This document shows positions 4,849 to 60,441 of a stretch of DNA of 64,000 nt, one piece after another (the first letter of the stretch is position 1; the number at the start of each line of letters is the position of its first letter). Location: assembly GCA_965531145.1 (NCBI GenBank), contig CBESOE010000004.1, positions 24,912 to 88,911 on the forward strand, read 5' to 3'. Source of the stretch: an uncultured bacterium. GTDB lineage: Bacteria > Acidobacteriota > JAQAZP01. The notes beneath the pieces are model-generated. The model was not told where the DNA came from. It did no database searches and saw nothing but the letters and a program-made list of their open reading frames with translations. A program made the position numbers and the translations under genes.

Positions 4849-5415
4849 ATGGTGGAGGCAAGTGAAGCAGAACTGATGGCCCGCACCAGGCAGGGGGACG
4901 AAGAGGCCTTTGCCTTGATCGTGGACCGCTTCAAGGACCGGGTGGTCAACTACCTCTGCCGGCTTACCGGGGACCGCGACCGCGCCGAGGACACGGCCCA
5001 GGAAACCTTCCTCCGCCTCTTCCGCACATCATCCGGCTACCGCGAGGAAGGACACCTGGCCGCTTTAATCTTCCGGATCGCCACCAACCTGGTGCGGTCG
5101 GAGGAGCGGCGTAACCGGCGCTGGCGGCTGTTCCGGGCCACGGTGCCCGCAGGGGGGAACGGCAACGGCGGACCGCCCAATCCCCAGACCCGGCTGCTGC
5201 AGCGGGAAGCCGCGGAGCAGCTCGGCGCCGCCATCGGCGAGCTGCCGCTGAAGTTCCGGGCGCCGCTGATGCTGCGGGAGATCGAGGGCCTGTCCTACCA
5301 GGCCATTGCCGAGGCCATCGGCTGCCGGGAGGGAACGGTGAAGTCGAGAATCAACAGGGGCCGGCAACAGCTGCGGGAGCGGCTGGAGCCATACTGGATC
5401 GGAGGGATGGGATGA
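4849..5415 (+). CDS. ECF (sigma-70 family, group IV) RNA polymerase sigma factor
   Basis: Region 2 (DEEAFALIVDRFKDRVVNYLCRLTGDRDRAEDTAQETFLRLFR) and region 4 HTH (REIEGLSYQAIAEAIGCREGTVKSRINRGRQQLRE); 188 aa. Confidence 0.9.
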   Translation: MVEASEAELMARTRQGDEEAFALIVDRFKDRVVNYLCRLTGDRDRAEDTAQETFLRLFRTSSGYREEGHLAALIFRIATNLVRSEERRNRRWRLFRATVPAGGNGNGGPPNPQTRLLQREAAEQLGAAIGELPLKFRAPLMLREIEGLSYQAIAEAIGCREGTVKSRINRGRQQLRERLEPYWIGGMG

Positions 5416-5828
5416 GCGACGAGCGTATCAGCAAAGAGCTCAAAGCGCTGCCCAGGGAGAAGGCGTCGGAGAAGTTCACCCGCCGCGTTCTCGCCAACCT
5501 CCCGCGCACCGAGAAGCGACGGATTCCGGCCTGGGGCTACCGCCTGGCGGCCGCGGCCACGGTGATCATCCTGCTGGTGATCCCGATGAGCCTGCGCCGC
5601 TGGTCCATGTCCATCGATACCGGAAACGAAGCGGTGCTTGCCGAAATCGAGGCGGTCCGCTCGGAAAAGGCGCTGATCGAGAGGGAATTGCGTGACCTGA
5701 GGGAGAAGGCAGCCGAAGAAAGCCCGGTGGTCTACCTCGGCGGCAACGAAGAGGTAAACCTGGTGCTCGACGTGGGCGCCCTGCTCAATCGGAGCACCGA
5801 GGCGAACGAGGGCACATCGGCCTTTTGA
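5412..5828 (+). CDS. Putative membrane-anchored anti-sigma factor
   Basis: ATGA start/stop overlap with the sigma gene; 138 aa; single TM (AAAATVIILLVIPM); cytoplasmic N-terminus, short coiled-coil C-terminus. No zinc-finger anti-sigma motif, so assigned by context only. Confidence 0.55.
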   Translation: MSDERISKELKALPREKASEKFTRRVLANLPRTEKRRIPAWGYRLAAAATVIILLVIPMSLRRWSMSIDTGNEAVLAEIEAVRSEKALIERELRDLREKAAEESPVVYLGGNEEVNLVLDVGALLNRSTEANEGTSAF

Positions 5829-5919
5829 GCGACAGTGAGACGAGAAACGAGAGCACCGGACAACGGTGCCGGAACAGCACGATGCACAACGATCCGAGGA
5901 TCGACGGAGGAACTGAACG

Positions 5920-6828
5920 ATGAAGTGGAACACGTGGAAACTGATCGTCACCGGCTGCACCCTGGCCGGTCTGGCCCTGTTTACGTCCGTGGCGCCGGCC
6001 GCGGTGCTCCCCGACGACGAGACAGGCACCGCCGGCGAGCAGGAGAAGGCGGTGGTCAAGGTGAAGGAGATCCGCGCTGACGGCGCGACCAAGATCAACG
6101 TCAAGGTCGTGGGGGACCATGATGGTGAGCATGTGGTCCACTGGGTGGGCTCGCCGGCCAATCGGGGTTTTCTCGGCGTGGCGTTGAACTCGCTGAGCCA
6201 TGATCTGCAGAAGCACTTCGGCGCGGCCGAAGGCAGCGGAGTGATGGTGGGCTCGGTGGTGGAGGGCAGCCCGGCCGAGGCCGCCGGCATCAGGGTGGGC
6301 GACGTGATCACCGCCATCGACGGCGCTGACGTGGCGTCGCCCTCCGACGTCCAGCGGATCATCCGCGAGAAGGAGGAGGGAGAGGCCGCCACCATCGCGC
6401 TGGTGCGGAGCGGCGCCCCGCTGACCGTCACGGCCACGGTGGGCGTGAAGGAGATGCAGGAATTCGACATCGGCATGCTGGGCGATATCGGGGACCTGAA
6501 AAAGAAGGCGTTCTTCATTTCCAGCGGCATGGAAGGCGGGAACATGGTCTTCGAAACCGTGGACGGCAATGTCACGGTGGACCTGACCGAGGAGATGGAT
6601 AAACTGGAGAATATTTTCATCGAAAAACTCGGCGATTCCGACGACCTGATCTACTTCGACACCGAGACCTTCAACGATTCGATGAAGGAAGTGCACGAAT
6701 ACCTGGCCAGCCCCGAGTTCCAGGAAAAGCTGAATGGTCTGCAGGAGCGTGAACTGGAGCTGCAGCAGCGGCTGGAGGCCCTGGAACTGAAACTGGAGAA
6801 ACTGGAAGAAGTGCACGAAGAGCAGTAG
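5920..6828 (+). CDS. Secreted PDZ-domain protein with coiled-coil C-terminus; paralog of 3876..4763
   Basis: Signal peptide MKWNTWKLIVTGCTLAGLALFTSVAPAAV. PDZ core FLGVALNSLSHDLQKHFGAAEGSGVMVGSVVEGSPAEAAGIRVGDVITAIDG, collinear with the first paralog. C-terminus ELELQQRLEALELKLEKLEE. Confidence 0.7.
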   Translation: MKWNTWKLIVTGCTLAGLALFTSVAPAAVLPDDETGTAGEQEKAVVKVKEIRADGATKINVKVVGDHDGEHVVHWVGSPANRGFLGVALNSLSHDLQKHFGAAEGSGVMVGSVVEGSPAEAAGIRVGDVITAIDGADVASPSDVQRIIREKEEGEAATIALVRSGAPLTVTATVGVKEMQEFDIGMLGDIGDLKKKAFFISSGMEGGNMVFETVDGNVTVDLTEEMDKLENIFIEKLGDSDDLIYFDTETFNDSMKEVHEYLASPEFQEKLNGLQERELELQQRLEALELKLEKLEEVHEEQ

Positions 6829-9303: not shown

Positions 9304-9831
9304 CTAGAACCCCACCCCCACTCCCACACGGTAAACCCACGGTGAGTTGTAGGAACTGTAAGGATCACCACTGTCATAAAGGAAATCGTAGAGCACCGAG
9401 AAATTGATCGCCGCGTGATCGCCCAGGGGCTGGGAGAACCCGCCGCCGCCCAGCAGACCGTTGTGGTTGGTGCGCTCGGTGCTGCCGTTCAGGGTGTAGT
9501 ATTCGTAGTTCAGGTAGTCGTACTCACCCTGGACGAAGATGTGCGGTATCACGTGGTAGCGGAGAAAAAGCCCACCGCCGTAATCGCTGGTGGAGAGGCT
9601 TGGCGAATACCGGCTGTCCTTGCGGTAACGGTAGGTCAGCCGCAAACCGGTGGCCAGCTTATCCACCGGGTAAAATCCCACCGTGGGTGAAAACTCGACA
9701 AAATCCACCGTGCCGAAGCCGGCCCCGAACCAGCCGCCCCAGAACATGTTCTTGTCCCCCCGCTCCCCGGCACCGGCCACGGTACTCAGGGTGAGAACCA
9801 CGAGCACGATCAAAACAATTCTGCATTTCAT
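9304..9831 (-). CDS. Small outer-membrane beta-barrel protein (OmpW/opacity-like, hypothetical)
   Basis: Signal peptide MKCRIVLIVLVVLTLSTVAGA; Gly/Tyr/Phe-rich strand pattern; C-terminal ...RVGVGVGF (terminal Phe typical of OMPs). Confidence 0.6.
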   Translation of the reverse strand: MKCRIVLIVLVVLTLSTVAGAGERGDKNMFWGGWFGAGFGTVDFVEFSPTVGFYPVDKLATGLRLTYRYRKDSRYSPSLSTSDYGGGLFLRYHVIPHIFVQGEYDYLNYEYYTLNGSTERTNHNGLLGGGGFSQPLGDHAAINFSVLYDFLYDSGDPYSSYNSPWVYRVGVGVGF

Positions 9832-9940
9832 TTTTCGGGCCTCCTGATCTCATGACCGGTTCACGGGGCGAACCGTTGCCGGATTCGCATCTGCCCACAG
9901 GTTAGTGAATTGACCCATGGGCGTCAAGATGCGCCCCCGG

Positions 9941-11030
9941 TCAGAAGCGGCCAGCGGCCACGGTGGCCCCGTGACTCATACCGGAGAAGCTCTCCAGGGT
10001 GGCCCAGGAGGTAACCTGGCTGCCGTCATAGCTGAAGACCGACACCGTGCTGCCCACCAGCGGGTCGGGGCCCAGACCGGCCACGATCTCGTCCCGACCG
10101 TCGCCGTCCAGGTCGGCCCGGGCGCTGACGTTCGCACCGAAGCGGTTCTCCGGCCAGGAGAAGGCGAAGAAGCTGAGACCGGGCAAGGGACTGATCCCGC
10201 TGCCGTCGTGGTTCCAGCCGCGGACGTGGGCGCCGAACACCGCCCCCGGCCCGGGTCCGGTGACGATCTCGTCGATGCCGTCGCCGTCCACGTCACCGCA
10301 GGTCACGTTCACCCCGAACTGGTTGGTGGAGTATGCGAAGTAGCTCACGCCGGGGATCGACGCTGCTGCCCCACCATCCACGTTCCAGCCCCGCACGTGG
10401 GGGCCGTAGACCGTGCCCGGGCCGGCGCCGGTGACGATCTCGTCGTAGCCGTCGCCGTCGATATCGCCGGTGCAAACGTTGACTCCCCACTTGGGCGTGC
10501 CGTAGGCAAAGTAGTTCACCCCGGACAGTGCGGTCACCCCTGAAGTGCCGTCATAGTCCCAGGCGCGCACATGGGGCCCGAACACCGCGCCGGGGCCGGC
10601 GCCGGTGATGATCTCGTCGAACCCGTCACCGTCGATGTCGCCGGCAGCAGCGTTCACCCCGTATTTGTTGGTGCCGTAAGCGAGGAAGCTCAGGCCGGGA
10701 AGCGGCGTGCCGTCGATGTCGAAACCCCGCACGTGGGGCCCGTAGATCGCCCCCGGTCCGGCACCGGTGAGGATCTCGTCCAGGTCGTCGCCGTCCAGGT
10801 CGCCGGCGCCCACGTTCACCCCGAAGCCGTCAGCGCCATAGGCCGCAAACTCGTAGAGGTGCACCGCCCCGCTCTGCGGGGGAAAGACTCGCACGTCGGG
10901 CGGGTTGGTTTCGGACGGGCCGGGGCCGGTGATGATCCGCGGCGCACTGAGGTCGCCACCCGGCTCATAGAGCGGCCGCTCGAAAATGCCGTTGCCATGG
11001 GTCGCCGCGCGGAGCAGCCGGTCCGGGGCG
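9941..11030 (-). repeat. Coding tandem repeat: FG-GAP blades (C-terminal propeller module, copy 2 of 3)
   Basis: Same repeat family as 8229..9266, in opposite orientation on the other side of the small OMP gene. Confidence 0.75.
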
Positions 11031-49753: not shown

Positions 49754-51193
49754 TCAGGTGAGCCGGAATTCCTCCCGCTGGCCCGCGGGCCAGATCACCC
49801 CGGCGTGCTCGTGCTGGGGGCAGAGGGCTGACGGTCCGGGCCCGGCCAGGGCTTCGGCCAGGTCCAGGCCGGCCTCGATGGAGTCGTCCATGTTGTTGTA
49901 CCAGAAGGTCCCGCAACGCCCGAGACAGAGGAGGTTGGCAAAGGGTGACAGCTGGTGGACGAAGCTGGCCAGCTGCTGCGGGTATTCCATGCGGTAGACC
50001 GGGTACGCTCCCCTGACCACTTCGCTGTGCACCCGCTCCACCCGGCTGCGCTCCACCAGCCTCACCGCTTCCAACTCGCCCACCACCTGCTCCTGGATCC
50101 GGGCCAGTTCCTCTGCCGCCGGCGGCTCGCCGGGCCAGGTCACTTCAACGCAGAGCCCGTCCTTGCCTGCGGGCACCAGGCCGGGGTGGAAGTTGCGCGG
50201 GAAGGAGATCCGCGAGATGGCCAGGTCGCTGTCCGAAAAGTATGTCCACTGATTCGGCGTCTCCACCTGCCCCGACACCTCCACATTGAAGATCAGCAGG
50301 CTGAGAAAGTCCAGACGGGGCAGGTCCACCCCCAGGCCGGCGGCCAGGTCGGCCGGAGGCGCGGTCCAGACCATCCAGGACGGCTCCACCCGCTGGCCCT
50401 GGAAACGAACCGCGGTGACCCGTTCCCCGTCACTCTCCAGGGCCAGGTCCTCCACGCCGGTGACCAGGCGGCCGCCGTCCCCGAGAAAGGCGTCGCGCAC
50501 CCGCTCCGCATAGAGGTCGATTCCCCCTTCGGGGTAGATGAACTTGGTCACCTTGGGCTTGGGCAGCAGAGCGATCCGCAGCACGTCGAACAGCGACCCC
50601 TGCTGGTAGCGGCGGTCGATGGTGGCCCGGTGGATCGACTGGCTGGCCCAGCTGTAATGCAACCGGTCGGGTGTGCAGTGGGCAAACTTGGTGGTGTAGC
50701 CCTTGAAGAAAACATCGTAGAGCGTCGGTCCGTAGCGGCTGACGATGTACTCTTCGAAACTCTGGTCGCCGCCGGCATCGTCATCCCTGTCCCCGCCCCG
50801 GCGCCCGGTCAGCAGGTCCCGCAGGCAGCGCAGAAGGACCGATGGCGGGAGGCGGAAGATGGAGGAGGTCCCCAGGGGCCAGGTGTGGTAGCGGCGGAAG
50901 AGGTAGACGCTGCTGCAGCGGTCGATGAGTACATACTGCTCCCCCAACGCTTCCCGGATCAGCGCCAGCGCCCGTTCGCTGTATGTATGGAAGCGGTGCG
51001 GCCCGATGTCGAAGGTGAAATCACCGTAGCGAAAACAGCGGGCCAGGCCGCCCACTTCGGGCAGACGCTCGATGAGCAGCACCGGCAGGCCGCGGCGGGT
51101 GAGCTCCCGCGCGGCGGTGAGACCGGCGATGCCGGCACCCACCACCACCACCGGCCGGCTGGTGTCGATCTGCCCGTTGTTGGTGCTCTCCAT
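49754..51193 (-). CDS. FAD-dependent oxidoreductase, UDP-galactopyranose-mutase-like / amine-oxidase superfamily
   Basis: Start at MESTNNGQIDTSRPVVVVGAGIAGLTAAREL (GxGxxG dinucleotide motif) inside track ORF 49754..51349; UGM-like ...GGLARCFRYGDFTFDIGPHRFHT. Confidence 0.7.
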   Translation of the reverse strand: MESTNNGQIDTSRPVVVVGAGIAGLTAARELTRRGLPVLLIERLPEVGGLARCFRYGDFTFDIGPHRFHTYSERALALIREALGEQYVLIDRCSSVYLFRRYHTWPLGTSSIFRLPPSVLLRCLRDLLTGRRGGDRDDDAGGDQSFEEYIVSRYGPTLYDVFFKGYTTKFAHCTPDRLHYSWASQSIHRATIDRRYQQGSLFDVLRIALLPKPKVTKFIYPEGGIDLYAERVRDAFLGDGGRLVTGVEDLALESDGERVTAVRFQGQRVEPSWMVWTAPPADLAAGLGVDLPRLDFLSLLIFNVEVSGQVETPNQWTYFSDSDLAISRISFPRNFHPGLVPAGKDGLCVEVTWPGEPPAAEELARIQEQVVGELEAVRLVERSRVERVHSEVVRGAYPVYRMEYPQQLASFVHQLSPFANLLCLGRCGTFWYNNMDDSIEAGLDLAEALAGPGPSALCPQHEHAGVIWPAGQREEFRLT

Positions 51194-51460
51194 CGTCCTC
51201 GCCTCTGCCCCGCACATCAACCCCGGCGGGCCTGCATTCATCTCTGACGGGAATTGGTTCTGGATCAGGGATGTGTCCTTCGACGAACAGCCAGTGTATC
51301 GGGCATTTCCGGCCCGCGTCAACCCGGGAGGAGCAAGCTGTCCCGGCAATTGGACTTGCCCGCTGATCTGATCCTAAGTAGAGTAACCACAGGTTATAAA
51401 CCATCACCCCCGGAAAGCCGATGAGAGAGAAGTGACTTCGGGGGAGCAGGGACCAGCAGC

Positions 51461-52603
51461 ATGCAGCGAGCAGCATTTTCCAGAACGGCAGCAGCGCAGA
51501 GATACGGGATACTCATCCTTCTGGTCGTTTTCTATCTCATTACCGGAGCGGTGGCAACAACGGCATCTGCCGATGAGACCACCTGCTCTGCCTGTGGCAA
51601 GACCATCCGCGGGGAGTACCTGGTTCTCGATGGTCACCCCTATTGCAGCCAGAACTGTATCGACGCGGTGCTCCCGGCCTGTGCGGTCTGTGGCGAGGCG
51701 ATCAGGGGCCCCTACCTGACCTTTGACGGCAGGCGGTACTGCAGCCAGGCCTGCCTGGACCGGAATCTGCCGGCCTGCGACATGTGCGGGCGTCCGGTGC
51801 AGGGTCAGTATTTTGAGAGCAAGGGGAAAACATACTGCAGCGATGACTGCTACCAGCTCTCGCTTCCCCGCTGCGAGGCCTGCGGCGAAGGGATGAAGGA
51901 GTGGCTGGAAATCGAGGGTCGGCTCTACTGCCACCCCTGCGCGGCCAGACAGCGTTGTGACGTCTGCGGCCACCCCGGGCAGACGTACGGCCTGGGCGAC
52001 GGACGGCGGATCTGCTCCCTCTGCCGGGAGACGGCGGTGATGGATCAGGCCGACGCCGAACAGCTCTTCCAGATGGTGCGCAAACGGATGGACCGCTCGC
52101 TTGACCTCGCCACCGACCACGAGATCGAGTTCCACCTGGTGAGCCGCGACGACCTGGACCGGATCAGCAACGGCTCTTCCAGCGGCCGGGAACTGGGCTA
52201 CTACCAGTACCAGGCCGAAACCACCACCACCTACCTCACCACCCGCGACCGCTACGGTCGGGAAGACAAACGGGTGGCCGGCGAGAAGACCGACAAGAAG
52301 TTCCGCATCTATGTTCTCTACGGGCTGCCGGAAAAACGACTGATGGAGGTGACGGCCCACGAACTGGCCCACGACTGGATGTATGCCAACCTGCCGCGGA
52401 TCAAGGCCCCGATCTTTGAAGAGGGATTTGCCGAATACGTGGCCTGGCTGGTCAATGACCGCTTTGGCCACGAAAAGCTGAAGATACGGATCGAAGAGAA
52501 CAGTGACCCGATCTATGGCGACGGCTTCCAGATGATGAAGGGCCTGGCTGACCGGTATGGCGGCCTCGACGGTCTGATCGGGTATCTCGACGAACTTCCC
52601 TGA
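51461..52603 (+). CDS. Membrane-anchored DA1-like protein: five tandem LIM-type single zinc fingers plus a C-terminal HExxH metallopeptidase domain
   Basis: TM anchor ILILLVVFYLITGAVATTASA. Five C-x2-C-x(13-15)-[HC]-x2-C units (CSACGKTIRGEYLVLDGHPYCSQNC; CAVCGEAIRGPYLTFDGRRYCSQAC; CDMCGRPVQGQYFESKGKTYCSDDC; CEACGEGMKEWLEIEGRLYCHPC; CDVCGHPGQTYGLGDGRRICSLC). HELAHDWMY close to the DA1-family HEMMHAW motif. Confidence 0.7.
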   Translation: MQRAAFSRTAAAQRYGILILLVVFYLITGAVATTASADETTCSACGKTIRGEYLVLDGHPYCSQNCIDAVLPACAVCGEAIRGPYLTFDGRRYCSQACLDRNLPACDMCGRPVQGQYFESKGKTYCSDDCYQLSLPRCEACGEGMKEWLEIEGRLYCHPCAARQRCDVCGHPGQTYGLGDGRRICSLCRETAVMDQADAEQLFQMVRKRMDRSLDLATDHEIEFHLVSRDDLDRISNGSSSGRELGYYQYQAETTTTYLTTRDRYGREDKRVAGEKTDKKFRIYVLYGLPEKRLMEVTAHELAHDWMYANLPRIKAPIFEEGFAEYVAWLVNDRFGHEKLKIRIEENSDPIYGDGFQMMKGLADRYGGLDGLIGYLDELP

Positions 52604-52841
52604 ACACCACCACTCGCCGGCAAAACCTCCGCGCGGCCATCATCACGGCACACCCTCGAATTTCCAGTAGTCCACTTTTTTTATCCTCCATACACGAAAA
52701 ACTCAACGACGAATTCGTCATCGAATTTCAATTTCGAAAGTGATCCTGAACCACATGCCAACAGAATGACATTTCACTCGCTAACAAAATGAAATCAATA
52801 AGCTTAACTCGTTAATAGACCGTCACTTACTTGGAACGGTT

Positions 52842-52879
52842 CCGTGCCGGAGCCTTCACCGGCAATGGCACGGTTTTTG
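52842..52879 (+). terminator. Candidate intrinsic terminator / leader hairpin between the DA1-like gene and the cytochrome promoter
   Basis: CCGTGCCGG...CCGGCAATGGCACGG imperfect hairpin followed by TTTTTGT; ~240 nt downstream of the stop at 52603 and just upstream of TTGATAG / TATATG promoter-like hexamers. Confidence 0.35.
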
Positions 52880-52946
52880 TATCCTATTTGATAGATATTC
52901 ACTGTGGTATATGTAGGCATTAATTAGTATTCAATGATGTGAACCA

Positions 52947-55502
52947 GTGAAGGAGGATATCTTGTCATTCTATCCCGGCCGCAGCCTTCCGGAGAACGAC
53001 CCTCAACGGCCGTCCAGGACAGCCGGACGGGATAGTACGCTGCTTGATAATCCGTGGCTCCGATCAGCCCTGTTCCTGATCCTCTTCGCCGCCCTCTTCT
53101 TCTTCACCACCGGGATGAACGGCGAGGACGATTATCCCCACGGCGAGTTCGACGAAGACTGCACACTCTGTCACGGTGATGAAGATTGGCTGCCGGTGGT
53201 GATTTCGCCGGAGTTCGACCACGACGAGGTATCCGGCTTCACCCGGCGCGGAGCGCACCTCGACCTGGGCTGCCCCGCCTGTCACAAGAGCCTCAACTTC
53301 GCCGAGGCGCCCCGGGAGTGCGCCGGCTGCCACCTCGACGTGCACATGGGCGAGCTGGGCTCGGACTGCGGACGCTGCCATGAGATTTACAGTTTCATCG
53401 ACAACGCAAGCTGGCTGCGCCGGCACAGTTCCACCCGGTTTCCGCTCACCGGCAGGCACCTCACCGCCGACTGCGAGGAGTGCCACCCGCCCCAGCCCCA
53501 GGGCCGGCTGATCTGGGTCAACCGGCCGGTGGACTGTTTCGCCTGCCATAGGGAAGAATATGAAGGGACGGGCAATCCCGACCACCGCGCTGCCGGATTC
53601 CCCACTGGTTGCGAGCAGTGCCACTCCACCAGCAGTTGGACCACGGGCAGTAGCAGCAGCGGTCACAGCGGGTTCCCGCTCACCGGCGGGCACACCGGTC
53701 TCGATTGCGACCTCTGCCACATCGACGGTGTGTACGAAGGCACACCCACCCACTGCTTCGGTTGCCACCAGGACGACTACAACCGGGAGCACGCCGGCAG
53801 CGGCTTTCCCACCGACTGCACCCAGTGCCACTCCACCAGCGACTGGGACGCAGAGGAGACGGGGCACACCAGCTTCCCGCTCACCGGGGCCCACGCCCCG
53901 CTGGACTGTGACGCCTGCCACGCCAACGGGGTCTACGAAGGGACACCCAGCGACTGCTACGCCTGCCACCAGGACGACTACGACCAGACCGACGACCCGG
54001 ACCACCAGGCCGCCGGCTATCCCACCGACTGCGACCAGTGCCACTCCACCAGCAACTGGGATGCCGAGGACGCGCACACCAGCTTCCCGCTCACCGGCGG
54101 GCACGGCGGTCTCGACTGCAACGACTGCCACGCCAACGGTATCTACCAGGGAACGCCCACGAACTGCGTGGCCTGCCACCAGGACGACTACAACCGAGAG
54201 CACACCGGCAGCGGCTTTCCCACCGACTGCACCCAGTGCCACACAACGGCAACCTGGGAGGGAGCCACCGATCACTCGTCGTTCCCGCTCACCGGGGCCC
54301 ACGGCACACTGGACTGCGACGCCTGCCACGGCAATGGGGTCTATGAGGGGACACCCACCGACTGCTACGACTGCCACCGCAGCGACTACGACCAGGAGCA
54401 CGCCGGCAGTGGCTTCTCCACTGACTGCACCGAGTGCCACACCACCAGCAACTGGGATGCCGACATCGATCACACCGGCTGGCCGCTCACCGGCGCCCAC
54501 GCTGCTGTGGACTGCAGCCTCTGCCACATCAACGGGGTCTACGAGGGGACACCCACCGACTGCTGGTCCTGTCACAGCAGCGAGTACAACGAGGAGCACA
54601 GCGGCAGCGGCTTCCCCCATGACTGCACTGAATGCCACACCACATCCAGCTGGGACTCGGAGGATGCGCACACCGACTTCCCGCTCACCGGCGGGCATGG
54701 CGGCCTGGACTGCAACCTCTGCCATCCCGGCGGGTCCTACCAGGGGACACCCACCGACTGCTGGTCCTGTCACCAGGAGGACTACGAAGACGAGCATGCC
54801 GGCAGCGGCTTCCCCCACGACTGCACCGAGTGCCACACGATCAACGACTGGGACGCCGATTTCGCCCACACCACCTGGGCCCTCAATGGCGCCCATGCTT
54901 CGGTGGCCTGCAACGACTGTCATGAAAACGGCGTCTACGAAGGAACGCCCACCGACTGTTTCGATTGCCACCAGCAGGACTTCAGCGGTGAACATGGCGG
55001 GGAGGGATACCCCCACGACTGCCTGCTCTGTCACGACGAGAACAACTGGGACTCCGATTACGACCACGACTCGGTCTGGCCGCTCACCGGCGAGCACCGC
55101 TTTGCCAACTGCACCGAGTGCCATATCAACGATGTGTACCAGGGGACACCCACACTCTGCTACGACTGTCACCGGGAAGATTACGAGGACGAGCACTCCA
55201 GCAGCACGCCCCACCAGTGCGAGGAGTGTCACAACACCAGTGACTGGGATGATGCCAACAGCCGGGCCGCCATGCCGAACCACGACGCGCTGTTCCCCAT
55301 CCACTCCGGCCGGCACCGCAACCTCTGGTTCTCCTGCAAGGACTGTCATCCGAACAAGAAGAACCCGTCCGTGTTCACCTGCGCCGGCTGTCACTCCCCC
55401 GGTGACCACCCGGCCTCCGGCCTGAAAAAAGCGGGCCCGGCCCCCTCTGTTTTCAGAAGCGTGGACCGGGACTGCCTGGTCTGCCATCCGAGGGGGGACT
55501 GA
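52947..55502 (+). CDS. Multihaem c-type cytochrome with 34 CxxCH motifs, N-terminal membrane/signal anchor
   Basis: 34 CxxCH motifs counted in 851 aa (CTLCH, CPACH, CAGCH, CGRCH ... CAGCH, CLVCH), many as paired CXXCH ~10 aa apart with abundant extra His for bis-His ligation. Hydrophobic N-terminal segment SALFLILFAALFFFTTG. Likely real start is TTG at 52962, 5 nt after a strong GAAGGAGGA SD; the track used GTG at 52947. Confidence 0.8.
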   Translation: MKEDILSFYPGRSLPENDPQRPSRTAGRDSTLLDNPWLRSALFLILFAALFFFTTGMNGEDDYPHGEFDEDCTLCHGDEDWLPVVISPEFDHDEVSGFTRRGAHLDLGCPACHKSLNFAEAPRECAGCHLDVHMGELGSDCGRCHEIYSFIDNASWLRRHSSTRFPLTGRHLTADCEECHPPQPQGRLIWVNRPVDCFACHREEYEGTGNPDHRAAGFPTGCEQCHSTSSWTTGSSSSGHSGFPLTGGHTGLDCDLCHIDGVYEGTPTHCFGCHQDDYNREHAGSGFPTDCTQCHSTSDWDAEETGHTSFPLTGAHAPLDCDACHANGVYEGTPSDCYACHQDDYDQTDDPDHQAAGYPTDCDQCHSTSNWDAEDAHTSFPLTGGHGGLDCNDCHANGIYQGTPTNCVACHQDDYNREHTGSGFPTDCTQCHTTATWEGATDHSSFPLTGAHGTLDCDACHGNGVYEGTPTDCYDCHRSDYDQEHAGSGFSTDCTECHTTSNWDADIDHTGWPLTGAHAAVDCSLCHINGVYEGTPTDCWSCHSSEYNEEHSGSGFPHDCTECHTTSSWDSEDAHTDFPLTGGHGGLDCNLCHPGGSYQGTPTDCWSCHQEDYEDEHAGSGFPHDCTECHTINDWDADFAHTTWALNGAHASVACNDCHENGVYEGTPTDCFDCHQQDFSGEHGGEGYPHDCLLCHDENNWDSDYDHDSVWPLTGEHRFANCTECHINDVYQGTPTLCYDCHREDYEDEHSSSTPHQCEECHNTSDWDDANSRAAMPNHDALFPIHSGRHRNLWFSCKDCHPNKKNPSVFTCAGCHSPGDHPASGLKKAGPAPSVFRSVDRDCLVCHPRGD
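53547..55227 (+). repeat. Coding tandem repeat: ~9 copies of a ~60-aa three-haem module
   Basis: Recurring unit GFPTDCTQCHSTSDWDAEETGHTSFPLTGAHAPLDCDACHANGVYEGTPSDCYACHQDDY with conserved F-P-L-T-G-[GA]-H and G-T-P-[TS]-D-C spacing. Confidence 0.75.
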
Positions 55503-57154
55503 TGATGAACAGCAGAACCCTCTTCACCGTGGCAATACTCCTGGCCCTCACTACCCTGATCACAGCTCGGCCACTGGCCGCCGCGGAAGCCGAACAGGCC
55601 ACCTGCCAGGTGACCTATCTCACCGGCAGTTCGGTCTACATCGACGCCGGCAGCGAGGACGGCCTGCGTCCCGGCGACCTGGTGGAACTGCTCAGCGGTG
55701 AGCAGGTGGTCATGGTGCTCCGGGTGCGCGACGTCTCCAGCCGCAAGGCGGCCTGCGTCCCCCAGGACCAGGAACTGGCCCTGGCCGGCCTGGTCAATGC
55801 CGGCGATACCGTGCGCTATGTCAAACACACCGCCGAGGCCTCAGCAGACCCGGCCGCTGCCGCGGGAGCGGTGGCCGGACAATCGGCCGGCGGCGCGGAG
55901 ACCGAAGAGCACAACGTGCCGGCGGATTCATCCGACGCCACCATCTTCGGCGGCCTGCGCGGGCGGGTGGGCCTGGCCTACCTGATGGTCAACGACAATG
56001 AGAACGACAGCGGCGGGTTCAGCCGGCCGGCGGTCACCCTGCGTCTCGACGGTGAGCACCTGGGTGACTCACCGTTCAGCATCCACATCGACACCCGGAT
56101 GCGGCGCACCACCAGCAACGTCGACGACGAAGCGGTGAACCGCGCCCGGGTCTACCGCTTCTCCGCCGAATACCAGCGACAGGGGTCGCCATACCGCTTC
56201 TCCCTGGGCCGGCAGTACTCGCCGGGGCTCTCCGGACTGACCCTCTTTGACGGCCTGCTGGCCGAGCGGCGCACCGACAAATGGGCCTTCGGCCTTTTCG
56301 GCGGCACCCAGCCCGACTACGAGGACTACACCTTTTCCTCGGACACTACCCAGTACGGCCTCTACGCCCAGCGGACCAGTCTTCCCGGCGCGGAGAAGCA
56401 GTGGGATCTGACCGCCGGTCTGGCCGCCACCTACGGCAAGGGCGAGGACTTCCGCGAGTTTCTCTTTCTCCAGGCCAACTACTTCACCCGGCGGCTGACC
56501 CTCTCCTTCAACCAGGAGGTGGACTTCAACCGCGACTGGAAATCGGACGCCGGGGAGAGCACGGTCCAGCCCACCAGCACCTTTGCCATCGCACGCTACC
56601 GGGTGGGCGACAACGTGACGCTGAACATCGGCTATGACGACCGGCGCCAGGTGATGCTCTACCGCGAGTTCGAGAACCCGGAGACCGAGTTCGACGACGA
56701 CAACCGGCAGGGGCTGTGGGGCGGGGTCGACGTGAGCTTCCTCAGGCGCTACCGCGCCGGGGTGCAGTATCGCGGTAACAGCGGTGGCGATGCCGGCAGT
56801 TCCAACTCCTACACCCTGACCCTGGGGGCGGCGGACCTCTTCCCCTTCCACCTCGACATCGGGGCACGTTCCACCCGTTTCGAGAACGACCGCTCGGAGG
56901 GCTGGCTCAACTCGCTGAACCTCTACCTGCCGGTGGGCCGGCGCACCCAGTTCTCGCTCTACGGGGGGCTGCGCCAGGATGAATACCCCAACGCGCTCAG
57001 CTCGGACCTGACCAGCCAGGACCTGGTCTGGTATGGCGCGGAGATGAACCTCCGCCTGGGCCGGTCGTGGTTCTTCCTCATCTCACTGGAACGGAATTCC
57101 GGAGACACCGAGGACTTCGACCAGCTCTACACCATGATCAGCTACCGGTTTTGA
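55502..57154 (+). CDS. Outer-membrane beta-barrel protein co-transcribed with the multihaem cytochrome (candidate porin partner)
   Basis: ATG overlaps the cytochrome TGA (ATGATGA). Signal peptide MMNSRTLFTVAILLALTTLITARPLAAAEA; ~120-aa N-terminal soluble segment; then alternating-pattern strands rich in Y/G/R/D; C-terminal ...YTMISYRF. Confidence 0.7.
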   Translation: MMNSRTLFTVAILLALTTLITARPLAAAEAEQATCQVTYLTGSSVYIDAGSEDGLRPGDLVELLSGEQVVMVLRVRDVSSRKAACVPQDQELALAGLVNAGDTVRYVKHTAEASADPAAAAGAVAGQSAGGAETEEHNVPADSSDATIFGGLRGRVGLAYLMVNDNENDSGGFSRPAVTLRLDGEHLGDSPFSIHIDTRMRRTTSNVDDEAVNRARVYRFSAEYQRQGSPYRFSLGRQYSPGLSGLTLFDGLLAERRTDKWAFGLFGGTQPDYEDYTFSSDTTQYGLYAQRTSLPGAEKQWDLTAGLAATYGKGEDFREFLFLQANYFTRRLTLSFNQEVDFNRDWKSDAGESTVQPTSTFAIARYRVGDNVTLNIGYDDRRQVMLYREFENPETEFDDDNRQGLWGGVDVSFLRRYRAGVQYRGNSGGDAGSSNSYTLTLGAADLFPFHLDIGARSTRFENDRSEGWLNSLNLYLPVGRRTQFSLYGGLRQDEYPNALSSDLTSQDLVWYGAEMNLRLGRSWFFLISLERNSGDTEDFDQLYTMISYRF

Positions 57155-57160
57155 GGCTGG

Positions 57161-58230
57161 TTAAAATCCACCGGCAGCCACAGTCGCTCCATATTTCCAA
57201 TCGGCGGGAAAGGCCTGCAATGAAAACTGCAGGTGCATCCGGGACCCGTCATAACTGTACACATTGACCGGTGATCCGGTTGACGGGTCCGGCCCGGGGC
57301 CCACCACCACTTCATTCCGCCAGTCACCGTCCAGATCGGCGGTGGCACAGACCTTCGCCCCGTACCGCACCTGGCTCGGCAACCAGGCAAAGAAGTTGAA
57401 CCCCGGCAGTTCGGTCACCGCTGTCCCGTCGTAGTTCCAGCCCCGGACATGGGCCCCGAAGGCCGCACCCGGGCCCGCACCGGTGACCAGCTCGTCCAGC
57501 CCGTCACCGTCCACGTCACCACAGGTGACATTCACGCCGTATTCGTTGGTCCCGTATGCGAAGAAACTCACCGCCGGAATGGCCTCGGCCGGACCGCCGT
57601 CCACATTCCACCCCCTGACGTGGGGACCGAATATCGTACCGGGCCCGGCGCCGGTGACGATCTCGTCATACCCGTCGCCGTCGATGTCCCCGGCGGCCAC
57701 GTTCACCCCCCACTGGATGGTACCGTAGGCAAAAAAGTTGACCCACGGGGATGGGGCCGCACTGCCGCCGCCGCCGTACTGGACCAGGTCGAACGCGCGG
57801 ACGTGCGGGCCAAAAACCCGCCCCGGTCCGGCGCCGGTGATCACCTCCCACGCCTCGTCATCGTCGATATCACCGGCACAGACGTTCACCCCGTATCGGG
57901 GTGTGCCGTAGGCAAAGAAGTTGAGCCCGGGCACCGGCACCCCATCCACCGTGAATCCCCGAACGTGGGGGCCGTAGATCTCACCAGGCCCGGCGCCGGT
58001 GAGCACTTCATCCACCTGGTTGCCGTCCACATCGCCGCAGCTCACATTTACTCCGTGGCTGGGGGCGCCATAAGCGGTGAACTCGCTGGTGTGGGTTGCG
58101 TCCTGCTGTGGCGGGAAGGTGCGCACCAGGGGCGGATTGGTGAGGCCCGGGCCAGGGCCGGCGACCAGGCCGGGGGTGGTGATCGGCGATGATTCACCCT
58201 TGTACAGCGCACTGTAATGCCGGGTCAGGT
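57161..58230 (-). repeat. Coding tandem repeat: FG-GAP blades (C-terminal propeller module, copy 3 of 3)
   Basis: Same family as 8229..9266 and 9941..11030; produces the antisense ORF 57449..58192 (+) in the track. Confidence 0.75.
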
Positions 58231-59549
58231 TGATGAACTGGTCGTTGTACTCGGCGGAGTCGCAGACATCAGTCCCCTCGTAGAACTCGTTCCAAGTCTC
58301 GATGGCGATCATCGGTACCCCCGAGGCGATGGCCGCTTCCCAGCTCTGCCGGTAATAGCGTCCGCCCTCCCGGTCGCGGTAAGAAGGCGGGTAGCGCACC
58401 GATGAATCATCGTACCCCGGACCCACGGCAGCGGTCTCCAGCAGTCGGGGCCCGTTCAGCGCCGCCCCCCACTGGTAACGGCTGTCGGTATCCACATTCC
58501 AACTGGCCTCCCGTACGATATACGGGGCCACACCGAATTGAAGCTGGAACTGCTCCTCCAGCTGATCGATGGACCACTGGTTGTAGTTGCCGGCAAAGTG
58601 GCTGGCGTACAACTGGATCAGCGGGCGGCCGTCCACCGTGGCCCGCAGCTCGTCCGGCACCATGTCGAAAAAGTCTCGTACCGTCCGCCAGAAAAATCCG
58701 TGCGGTTCCGCGGCGGTGATGTCCAGACCGGGGTTGAGGCTGGCCTCGTACGATTCATCGACGAACTGCAGCATTGCGTCTCGCGAGCCGCCCCCGGTGA
58801 GAAAGTCGAGCCAGTAGAGATATCCCGTGCTGTCCGGTTCCCGGCCGAGGATCAGCTCGAAGGTGTCGTTGACGAATTCGGTGTCGCTGACGATCAGTGC
58901 GCCGTAAGCCGGGGAGTCGAGAATGCCGCCGATGAACTCCCGTCTGGTAATCCCCCCCCAGCCCAGGGCCAGCACCCCCTCCTCCAGTTCGAACAGATCG
59001 GGCGTGCGGTTGAGCAGCACCGTGTAGCAGCGGATAACAAAGTGGCTGTCCGACAGGAACTGCACCGCCCGGTAGCTGCAGCGCACGTAACGGTGCTGGT
59101 CGTAGTCGTAGGTCACCGGGTTCATGGTCAGGGTGACCGTGTCGTAAAACATGCCGATCTTCGGCGGAGTCTCCCCCGCGGCCGCCATCTGCTGCGCGGC
59201 CTGCACCAGCAGTTCCAGGCCTTCATTGCTCCAGTAGTTGTAGCGGGCGGCGCTGTGCGGAAAGCCCCAGTAGACCGGCAGCACCACGTCAATGCCGGCC
59301 TCGCTCATCCGGCGGAGATTGAAGGTGTACCAGGGCAGGGATCTCCACCAGAGGGGGGTCCCGGCAGGGAGCCAGGGGTGGTCGGACATCTCCCCCGGAT
59401 TCTCGTGATACCAGTAGAAGAAGTAGGTGGTGACCAGCTTCTCGTCCACCGGCACCGTGTCCGGCTCCGCCGAGAGAGGCACCGTAACCAGGACAAAACA
59501 GACCAGACAGAAACCTGCAATGTGCAACGATCTGGTCAGGCCGGCCATG
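57161..59549 (-). CDS. Secreted protein: N-terminal glycosidase-like domain with a DUF4214 insert plus C-terminal FG-GAP beta-propeller
   Basis: Start at MAGLTRSLHIAGFCLVCFVLVTVPLSA (signal peptide) inside track ORF 57161..59719. DUF4214-like LGREPDSTGYLYWLDFLTGGGSRDAMLQFVDESYEA. C-terminal blades GVNVSCGDVDGNQVDEVLTGAGPGEIYGPHVRGF ... ending KYGATVAAGGF. Confidence 0.75.
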
Positions 59550-59559
59550 TCGACATTCT

Positions 59560-60441
59560 TCAAGGGACGCTCCCCGTCACAGTGCAGCTGTCCGTATCGG
59601 TAACTCCCGACGGGAGGTAGGGTGGCTGGTTGTAAGGGGCGGGTGTGACGTCTTCGGCAACCAGGGTGAACACGTTTGGGCCCTTCAGTGGCCCGAGCAG
59701 AGGAAGATACTGATTCCATTCCTCGGTGAACTGCCGTCCGGCGTGCAGGTTCATAAACCCCGAGCGCCAGTTGGAGAACACGTATCCACCGGCCAGCTCC
59801 ACATCGATCCGTGCGGAGTATCGCCTGACCTGACCGCCGTAAAGGTTCTTCAGGTTGGCGTTCATGTGGACGTTCAGGGGCAGCGATCCCACGGGCGGGT
59901 CACATTGGAGAGTGGCCTGCAGAAACTCGTCGCAGGAGACCCAGGTGTGAAAGTTGAAATCACCGGCGTAATAATTGCCATCCCGGTAGCCGTGACCCGC
60001 CCCATAGCAGCCGCTGGAGACGGCCGTCCAGGCAAGATTGTGTGTCTCGGAGATGACCTCGATCACATATGTGCTCCCCGGTGTGAGGGGGATGGGCAAA
60101 TTGAAAGCACAGGGAACCCACTCGGTGTACACACCGGACCGCGGAATGAAGGTGACCGAACTGCCAGCCACAATAGGCCCGTCGATTACATTTTCATGGA
60201 GCAAAACGGTCACGGGGAGGTGATTACCAGGATTCGAGGAAGACAGCCGCAGATCGAGGCCAACATGCTCGGATTCGCTGGGCACGAAAGATTGTCCCAT
60301 GGGCATGGAGTTGACGATGGGCCATGCGGAATTCCATGGATCCGTGCACTCCTGATCCACGCAGCCGGCGAAGAGCGGCGAACATGAAAGAAGGGCGAGT
60401 GAGAGAATGAGAACCATGCGAATTGACGACTTCAATTTCAT
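59560..60441 (-). CDS. Hypothetical secreted lipoprotein-like protein
   Basis: Signal peptide MKLKSSIRMVLILSLALLSCSPLFAGC (lipobox-like LFAGC); 293 aa; no family motif recognised. Confidence 0.5.
   Translation of the reverse strand: MKLKSSIRMVLILSLALLSCSPLFAGCVDQECTDPWNSAWPIVNSMPMGQSFVPSESEHVGLDLRLSSSNPGNHLPVTVLLHENVIDGPIVAGSSVTFIPRSGVYTEWVPCAFNLPIPLTPGSTYVIEVISETHNLAWTAVSSGCYGAGHGYRDGNYYAGDFNFHTWVSCDEFLQATLQCDPPVGSLPLNVHMNANLKNLYGGQVRRYSARIDVELAGGYVFSNWRSGFMNLHAGRQFTEEWNQYLPLLGPLKGPNVFTLVAEDVTPAPYNQPPYLPSGVTDTDSCTVTGSVP

Follow-up and report, generated by a model that had tools for sequence, protein, structure and literature searches.

A 34-haem cytochrome of tandem trihaem modules encoded beside an outer-membrane barrel: a probable PCC3-like haem wire

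Giant multihaem cytochromes are presumed to be the wires of extracellular electron transfer, a process that shapes how iron, humics and carbon are cycled in soils and sediments. Among the described systems, the closest to the one analysed here is the PCC3 cluster, which combines a porin with two cytochromes, one 'extracellular' and repeat-rich (median 34 haems) and the other 'periplasmic' (median 21 haems), and with an inner-membrane protein (PMC5566968). The latter, of about 300 aa and found in both PCC3 and PCC4, carries two W-x3-H-x13-H motifs and SGxxG (He et al. 2017, PMC5566968), and PCC3 itself has been reported only in Alpha-, Beta- and Gammaproteobacteria (PMC5566968). In the Gallionellaceae the periplasmic PCC3 cytochromes hold 21, 24 or 27 haems (PMC9900912/PMC10734462). 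A second relevant group is formed by the c7 polymers of Geobacter sulfurreducens, of which GSU1996 (12 haems, four domains, each with one His/Met haem) and GSU2210 (27 haems) have been proposed to act as capacitors (PMC10138318); such polymers are thought to come from duplication and concatenation of c7 modules (PMC10138318, PMC11492766). More generally, the grafting and pruning model of Soares et al. 2022, as it is presented in PMC11492766, holds that haem number changes by whole modules. Here we compare these systems with a gene carried by a 64-kb stretch of DNA from an uncultured bacterium (hereafter the window, meaning the whole stretch analysed), in which a single plus-strand open reading frame (ORF), 52947/52962..55502, encodes a c-type cytochrome with 34 CxxCH motifs.

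We consider it probable that this protein is a modular single-chain haem wire, that it operates with an adjacent outer-membrane barrel in a PCC3-like conduit, and that its length has been changed by recombination between modules. Modular growth and pruning of multihaem cytochromes, polymers of c7 domains and repeat-rich PCC3 cytochromes of variable haem number are already established, and specialists will not find these results unexpected. What is added is a series of 34- versus 37-haem orthologues and a small-barrel, non-proteobacterial branch, the latter possibly undescribed.

The cytochrome and its trihaem modules

All 68 cysteines of the cytochrome fall inside CxxCH motifs, and the haem total can be written as 1 + 11 x 3 = 34, one leading motif being followed by eleven trihaem units. 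The features of the gene are listed below.

52962..55502, plus strand: multihaem c-type cytochrome gene, 846 aa from TTG 52962 (851 aa from GTG 52947)
53052..53111, plus strand: N-terminal hydrophobic helix, LRSALFLILFAALFFFTTG, modelled by AlphaFold2 as a helix at residues 36-55 and kept in orthologues
53160..53174, plus strand: extra N-terminal haem motif C72TLCH, the '+1' of the 3n+1 count
53229..53663, plus strand: two divergent N-terminal trihaem units, aa 95-161 and 162-239
53664..55292, plus strand: core array, aa 240-782, with eight trihaem modules in tandem (66-75 aa each), supported by Tandem Repeats Finder, alignment and identity matrices
53664, 53865, 54075, 54273, 54471, 54669, 54867 and 55068, plus strand: first nucleotides of the eight core modules
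53794..53831, plus strand: copy 1 of the longest exact intragenic repeat (38 bp), encoding GSGFPTDCTQCH
54205..54242, plus strand: copy 2 of the same 38-bp repeat, 411 bp (two modules) 3' of copy 1
55293..55499, plus strand: divergent C-terminal trihaem unit, aa 783-851, kept in all orthologues

Modules were cut at the first Cys of each CxxCH-x11-CxxCH pair, and each contains this pair plus one single CxxCH, with a Cys-to-Cys spacing of 29/16/21. Tandem Repeats Finder detected the repeat in the DNA itself over 53673-54958, with periods of 198 bp (5.9 copies, 73% matches) and 396 bp (3.2 copies, 76%). Between the eight core modules identity is 44-70% at the aa level (mean 58%) and 56-80% at the nt level (mean 69%), with an average of 62% at third codon positions, and the modules align also outside the haem motifs, at FPLTGxH, GxYxGTP, DDY, GSGFPTDC and a conserved Trp. 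Taken together, the DNA-level repeat, the alignment and the identity matrices confirm that the modules are homologous and not motif look-alikes. The outer units are more diverged: the two N-terminal ones are 30-50% identical in aa to the core modules but 71-82% identical to their positional orthologues in L001, one of the orthologous loci introduced below, while the C-terminal unit is 81-93% identical to its positional orthologues.

This description refines a sequence-only reading of the window, which had placed about nine near-identical modules at 53547-55227. The tandem repeat was correctly recognised, as was its content of one single and one paired CxxCH per module; the count and bounds were not, since there are eight clear modules at 53664-55292 plus three divergent units, and the span proposed cuts through the first and last units. 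Nor are the modules near-identical, given the identities above and a longest exact repeat of 38 bp, and the signature quoted for every module is rarer in its exact form, with five occurrences of FPLTG[AG]H and three of GVYEGTPTDC (nine and seven, respectively, for the relaxed forms [FW][PA]L[TN]GxH and GxYxGTPxxC).

As for the protein family, Pfam gave matches above cut-off to PF14522 Cytochrome_C7 (E 3e-34, five stretches), PF14537 Cytochrom_c3_2 and PF02085 Cytochrom_CIII; PF22113 was matched as well, and there was a weak match to MtrC/MtrF domain II/IV. Together with the 34 CxxCH motifs, the 74 His (2.2 per haem) and a chain of about 25 aa per haem, these matches place the protein among the class III (c3/c7) multihaem cytochromes. 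Since six His are conserved in every core module, His is present at more than two per haem and the core modules contain none of the only four Met of the protein, all the haems are probably bis-His ligated, judging from the sequence. NCBIfam offered nothing usable for the cytochrome, for the barrel or for the membrane protein of the orthologous loci: its decahaem models did not reach their cut-offs, and TIGR03508 (DmsE/MtrA) did not match the window protein, its only match being a 20-haem protein of L001 (58 bits versus a cut-off of 192). A PDB sequence search with the full cytochrome gave no match.

The obvious structural comparison is with GSU1996, GSU0592 (12 haems) and GSU2210, which are likewise single chains of tandem trihaem units, of about 70-80 aa. 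The window protein shares with GSU1996 this tandem arrangement, in 11 units, and the match to Cytochrome_C7. It differs from it in several respects: there is no detectable sequence relation to the GSU1996 structure 3OV0, and PpcA scores at chance level in the PDB; the Cys spacing of 29/16/21 is not that of c7; all the haems are apparently bis-His, whereas a GSU1996 domain has one His/Met haem; and the gene is linked to that of a barrel, so that its product, unlike the Geobacter polymers, is probably not a free periplasmic protein. With its four trihaem domains GSU1996 measures about 12 nm, and by the same proportion a length of roughly 30 nm could be expected for 11 units.

The N-terminus deserves separate mention. 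An AAGGAGG Shine-Dalgarno sequence lies at 52950-52956, a few bases 5' of TTG 52962, and the identical database protein P0001 (846 aa) begins at this same codon, so TTG 52962 is the likely start. The hydrophobic helix is preceded by a conserved hydrophilic tail of about 33 aa and may be either a cleaved signal peptide or an uncleaved signal anchor; in the Bacteroidota homologue of locus L016 an ordinary signal peptide occupies its place.

Module number among orthologues

Four orthologous loci, L001, L002, L003 and L073, were compared with the window, whose closest relatives are uncultured Acidobacteriota metagenome-assembled genomes (MAGs).

Window, P0001: 846 aa, 34 haems, 11 trihaem units
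L001, P0002: 82% aa identity to the window protein, 916 aa, 37 haems, 12 units
L073: 918 aa, 37 haems, 12 units
L002, P0011: 67% aa identity to the window protein, 903 aa, 37 haems, 12 units
L003, P0004: 75% aa identity to the window protein, 837 aa, 34 haems, 11 units

These proteins bear out the earlier suggestion that the array expands or contracts, because close orthologues differ by steps of one trihaem unit (37 versus 34 haems) and show two different single-module gaps. The module map is one-to-one: window units 1-2 correspond to L001 units 1-2, and window units 3-11 to L001 units 4-12. L001 unit 3, of the 70-aa 'long' type, has no counterpart in the window protein, while L003 lacks a different unit, the counterpart of L001 unit 5. 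Parsimony favours a 12-unit, 37-haem ancestor with two independent in-frame losses of a single module, one in the window lineage and one in that of L003. The second half of the third window unit is 93% identical to L001 module 4, while its first half is 64% and 72% identical to modules 3 and 4, respectively; the breakpoint of the missing module cannot be placed because its flanks are themselves repeats.

Window modules are 71-91% identical to their positional counterparts in L001 but no more than about 70% identical to other modules of the same protein. Since positional orthologues are closer than paralogues, the array is old, with no look of recent expansion, and a recent amplification of the modules was discarded. 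A trace of how the array grew may persist in the most alike module pairs, which start at aa 240 and 377 and at aa 307 and 443 (79-80% nt identity), and in the higher Tandem Repeats Finder score of the 396-bp period compared with the 198-bp period, both pointing to growth partly by a two-module block of about 400 bp. In the mechanism we propose the units would have arisen through such old tandem duplications and then diverged.

Exact in-register repeats remain as substrates for further recombination. In the window gene they measure 20-38 bp, at spacings of 198, 210, 396, 408, 411 and 594 bp, and in the orthologues they reach 61 bp; lengths of 20-61 bp are near the minimum for RecA-dependent recombination. 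Crossing-over between the two 38-bp copies would shorten or lengthen the protein by 6 haems without breaking the frame. Unequal recombination between modules in register would occasionally remove or add whole units and set the length of the wire in three-haem quanta, the window lineage having presumably lost one unit from the 12-unit, 37-haem ancestor. Set against grafting and pruning as summarised in PMC11492766, the one-module differences between close orthologues are a clean example of that model; here they are in-register indels in a homogeneous array, pointing to unequal recombination and not to fusions of unlike modules.

The same quantum is seen across the family. Among 8000 candidates scored, at least 6233 proteins were found at E <= 1e-10, and the 120 best homologues carry 31-60 haems, with peaks at 34, 37, 40, 43, 46, 49, 55 and 58. 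A count of 3n+1 was obtained for 83 of these 120, versus 40 expected by chance, and many of the exceptions have spare Cys, suggesting that one of their motifs is degenerate. The 34- and 37-haem orthologues, one defined module apart in a family of roughly 25-60 haems, offer a natural series in which wire length could be related to function.

The barrel gene and the PCC3-like context

The cytochrome gene is followed directly by that of a predicted outer-membrane barrel and preceded by an AT-rich spacer. Neither the neighbouring barrel gene nor the PCC3-like setting had been picked up in the sequence-only reading.

55502..57154, plus strand: barrel gene, 550-aa product, its start overlapping the cytochrome stop codon
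52604..52946, no strand assigned: AT-rich intergenic region of 343 bp, 5' of the cytochrome gene

The two genes are apparently translationally coupled. No Pfam or NCBIfam match was found for the barrel protein, and its identification comes from an AlphaFold2 model (pLDDT 83) with a signal peptide, a beta domain at aa 32-107, a disordered linker at 112-145, about 22 strands at 152-549 and a C-terminus ending in SYRF. Every Foldseek match of this model was an outer-membrane barrel, namely the PapC/FimD pore, Occ porins or AlgE, at TM-scores of 0.3-0.4. The small N-terminal beta domain, which is confidently modelled, contains an invariant C85 and is followed by the linker of about 35 aa; in the model it could be a periplasmic docking or plug domain. 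Using a family profile built from 35 homologues we found the barrel gene directly 3' of the big cytochrome in at least 25 related loci of Acidobacteriota, Thermoanaerobaculia, Bacteroidota, Krumholzibacteriia and others, where the cytochromes hold 25, 28, 31, 34, 37 or 46 haems. In one Bacteroidota locus, L009, an extra 10-haem cytochrome (9803..10618) lies between the 34-haem cytochrome and the barrel gene.

In L001, L002 and L073 the pair is preceded by three further genes, encoding a flavoprotein with Fer4 and Pyr_redox_2 domains, a membrane protein (288 aa in L001) and a 20-haem cytochrome. The last has an ordinary signal peptide and occurs also in Bacteroidota loci, and the membrane protein of L001 bears two W-x3-H-x13-H motifs and SGxxG, which are likewise present in L002 and L073. 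This three-gene stretch (L001 3771..7685) was compared with the window spacer 52604..52946. The spacer itself is 67% identical to the one that precedes the 37-haem gene of L001 and L073, and the 52-53 kb bin in which it lies has a GC content of 0.547, versus about 0.65 elsewhere. It probably holds the promoter of the cytochrome gene or another conserved regulatory region, and, since it can be aligned with the spacers of L001 and L073, the cytochrome-barrel pair seems to have a promoter of its own.

The orthologous loci thus share with PCC3, going by the published description, the order of an inner-membrane protein of about 290 aa, a cytochrome of about 20 haems, a large cytochrome and a barrel, and their inner-membrane protein bears the published signature of two W-x3-H-x13-H motifs plus SGxxG. 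The large cytochrome of the window fits equally well: it has the published median number of haems, 34, at roughly one per 25 aa, it is rich in repeats, and in both cases the haem number differs from genome to genome. The predicted barrel, with about 22 strands in the model and fold matches to outer-membrane barrels, would fill the place of the porin. By analogy of position, haem number and repeat nature, the window gene would therefore correspond to the large distal cytochrome of a PCC3-like cluster. There are also clear differences. PCC3 was described in Proteobacteria, whereas the window locus appears to belong to Acidobacteriota; the proteobacterial outer-membrane proteins have about 850 aa, whereas the barrel here has about 550 aa and about 22 strands, homology between them being unproven; the Fe-S/flavoprotein gene lies inside the operon of the orthologous loci; and the window locus has neither a second cytochrome of about 21 haems nor the inner-membrane protein. 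Gammaproteobacterial loci recovered with the same query have the classic arrangement, in the order membrane protein, 21-haem cytochrome, 19-21-haem cytochrome and an 850-870-aa protein ending in Phe. If the correspondence holds, the PCC3-type layout would reach beyond Proteobacteria, into Acidobacteriota-like and Bacteroidota genomes in which the barrel is smaller.

The membrane protein was also followed on its own. Homologues of the L001 copy (5077..5943, about 290 aa) are present in about 58 of 68 related loci and accompany c7-repeat cytochromes in Acidobacteriota, Bacteroidota, Nitrospira, Myxococcota, Chloroflexota and Gammaproteobacteria; the Nitrospira loci combine it with 24-haem partners and no barrel. 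This module is far wider than the Proteobacteria in which PCC3 was described.

In the conduit that we propose, the cytochrome would open with its hydrophobic helix and a single haem and continue with 11 trihaem units in tandem, which are related to the class III (c3/c7) cytochromes and have about 66 aa and six conserved His each, the whole forming a linear chain of closely spaced bis-His haems. In the orthologous loci the cytochrome-barrel pair would be the distal end of a cluster that runs from the Fe-S flavoprotein through a putative five-helix, dihaem-b-type inner-membrane protein, the 20-haem periplasmic cytochrome and the large cytochrome to the barrel. Electrons may then travel along the successive haems of the wire, either through the barrel or only as far as it, and so reach or leave an extracellular partner. 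We infer both the localisation of the proteins and their role in electron transfer between the periplasm and the cell surface.

Other trans-outer-membrane systems were compared as well. MtrCAB, MtoAB and OmaB-OmbB-OmcB also pair a multihaem cytochrome gene with that of an outer-membrane barrel, implying electron transfer across the outer membrane, but their cytochromes carry 8-12 haems and their porins are unrelated in sequence. These porins have 20-26 strands, and the 50 best fold matches of the barrel did not include MtrB. The extracellular electron transfer clusters of peat Acidobacteriota (bioRxiv 10.64898/2026.05.27.727921) and the porin-multihaem cytochrome systems of Verrucomicrobia (PMC5615132) were considered and set aside as different systems, their cytochromes having 8-13 haems.

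Alternative explanations and neighbouring genes

Several observations weigh against the PCC3-like haem wire. The flavoprotein, membrane protein and 20-haem cytochrome genes are absent from the whole window (tblastn); possibly the conduit is incomplete at this locus, or genes located elsewhere in the genome supply it. The L003 locus also lacks all three. No solved structure is related by sequence: a module profile of eight two-haem-overlapping segments matched the PDB only at chance level (E values of 0.02 for the reaction-centre cytochrome, 0.12 for HMC, 0.44 for c3 and about 1 for PpcA), and the NCBIfam model for GSU1996-type proteins, TIGR04257 nanowire_3heme, did not match the window protein at E <= 0.001, while the 20-haem protein of L001 gave a sub-threshold match (19.5 bits versus a cut-off of 40). 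Comparing the barrel with the proteobacterial PCC3-like outer-membrane proteins of about 850 aa, hhalign gave no significant similarity, with probabilities of 5% and 1.6%, although a GRQ...FDG motif is aligned in these comparisons. Finally, the choice between module loss and module gain rests on parsimony over five sequences.

Two other roles were weighed for the protein. It might be a periplasmic electron store or 'capacitor' like GSU1996 and GSU2210, that is, a soluble c7 polymer that neither crosses nor docks at the outer membrane, which would agree with the Cytochrome_C7 match, with a trihaem periodicity resembling that of both proteins, and with a cytochrome that has no lipoprotein Cys and shows no evidence of secretion. 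We consider this unlikely, as its gene is tightly and widely paired with that of an outer-membrane barrel, and in the orthologous loci the 'periplasmic' slot is already filled by the separate 20-haem cytochrome with its ordinary signal peptide; moreover, neither nanowire_3heme nor the PDB entry of GSU1996 matches, and there is no conserved Met for the His/Met haem of the GSU1996 domains. A bolder proposal is that the pair found in Acidobacteriota and Bacteroidota (a 3n+1-haem cytochrome plus a 22-strand barrel of about 540 aa with an N-terminal beta domain) constitutes an undescribed PCC3-like branch, in which the big cytochrome is anchored in the inner membrane by its N-terminal helix and reaches the barrel alone. 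A stand-alone bridge of this kind would explain why the window lineage and, independently, L003 do without an adjacent membrane protein and 20-haem cytochrome, and, if true, one protein of about 30 nm would span the whole periplasm, its length tuned in three-haem steps. We regard this as quite unlikely, and retain the PCC3-like wire working with a barrel as the preferred interpretation.

The remaining alternatives concern the array itself. Haem-dense cytochromes have a biased composition (53% of the residues here are D, G, H, T, C or S), and the periodicity could in principle reflect convergent CxxCH spacing in a low-complexity protein without common descent. A motif-only similarity is nevertheless refuted, its probability being close to nil, by the repeat that Tandem Repeats Finder detects in DNA (73-76% matches), by module alignments and identity matrices in which identity reaches residues outside CxxCH and third codon positions, and by exact in-register DNA repeats of up to 38 bp. 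An assembly artefact is a more reasonable concern: the true gene might have more or fewer modules, the 34-haem form being a collapse or expansion in a short-read assembly. The orthologues of L001, L002 and L073 do carry one module more, and assemblies do break in these genes, since in the MAG JAQAZP01 the orthologous cytochrome gene is split between the contig end of L006 and the contig start of L075, with the break inside the array, and several other loci end within the cytochrome. In the window, by contrast, modules with 56-80% nt identity share no exact repeat longer than 38 bp, which is under usual assembly k-mers, and the same 34-haem gene is found in L072, a SPAdes NODE contig from a separate assembly that matches at all but 8 of 8541 nt, so collapse is unlikely. 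In addition, neither the reading frame nor any haem motif is disrupted across the junction, and the single-module gap of L003 is independent and at a different place; an artefact of either sort is thus very improbable. The warning that such arrays are prone to collapse or expansion in assembly consequently is unlikely to apply to this window, while fragmentation is real elsewhere, and haem counts from fragmented short-read MAG assemblies should be treated with care. With these alternatives weighed, changes in module number by recombination remain our preferred explanation for the difference between 34 and 37 haems. One further possibility, that two long ORFs in alternate frames of the gene are real overlapping genes, also has almost no likelihood. 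Both ORFs, which the sequence-only reading had pointed out, are present in the ORF list:

53064..55487, minus strand: antisense shadow ORF, 807 aa, not a gene
53560..55425, plus strand: +1-frame shadow ORF, 621 aa, not a gene

Their stop-free runs (637 codons in the +1 frame, p ~0.002; 812 codons antisense, p ~0.01) exceed those obtained when the codons of the cytochrome gene were shuffled synonymously, which is the one point in favour of overlapping genes. Against them, shuffled controls already reach 305±99 and 527±127 codons, respectively; 34 haem motifs and over 6000 homologues speak for the annotated frame; neighbouring genes too carry antisense shadow ORFs, of 337-432 codons; and the shadow translations are of low complexity, rich in P, A, T, R and G. 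On the shuffles, the neighbouring shadows and this low complexity, overlapping genes were rejected. As to why the frames are so long, DNA similarity between modules had been proposed as the cause. It contributes, since the observed runs exceed the shuffled ones and the shared codon pattern of the modules must add to them, but the effect is mainly compositional, because the GC content at third codon positions (GC3) of 0.84 and the amino-acid composition keep even the shuffled runs long.

Long antisense frames are general in this genome, given the high GC3. Codon-aligned antisense frames of the neighbouring genes run to 337-432 codons, and antisense shadow ORFs of 260-430 aa lie over neighbours at 49955..51247 (plus strand), 51404..52471 (minus strand) and 56069..56851 (minus strand).

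Scans of the window for tRNA genes and Rfam families found nothing. Immediately downstream of the barrel gene and convergent with it, 57161..59719 (minus strand) encodes an 852-aa protein with DUF4214, DUF5010/GH99-like and FG-GAP repeat regions, a gene that is syntenic in L001. On the other side, the AT-rich spacer is preceded by 51461..52603 (plus strand), whose 380-aa product combines several LIM-like CxxC zinc-finger pairs with a DA1-like HExxH peptidase domain (PF12315, PF00412). This LIM/DA1-like architecture is best known from plants, and the gene is syntenic beside the cytochrome cluster in L001, L002, L003 and L073.

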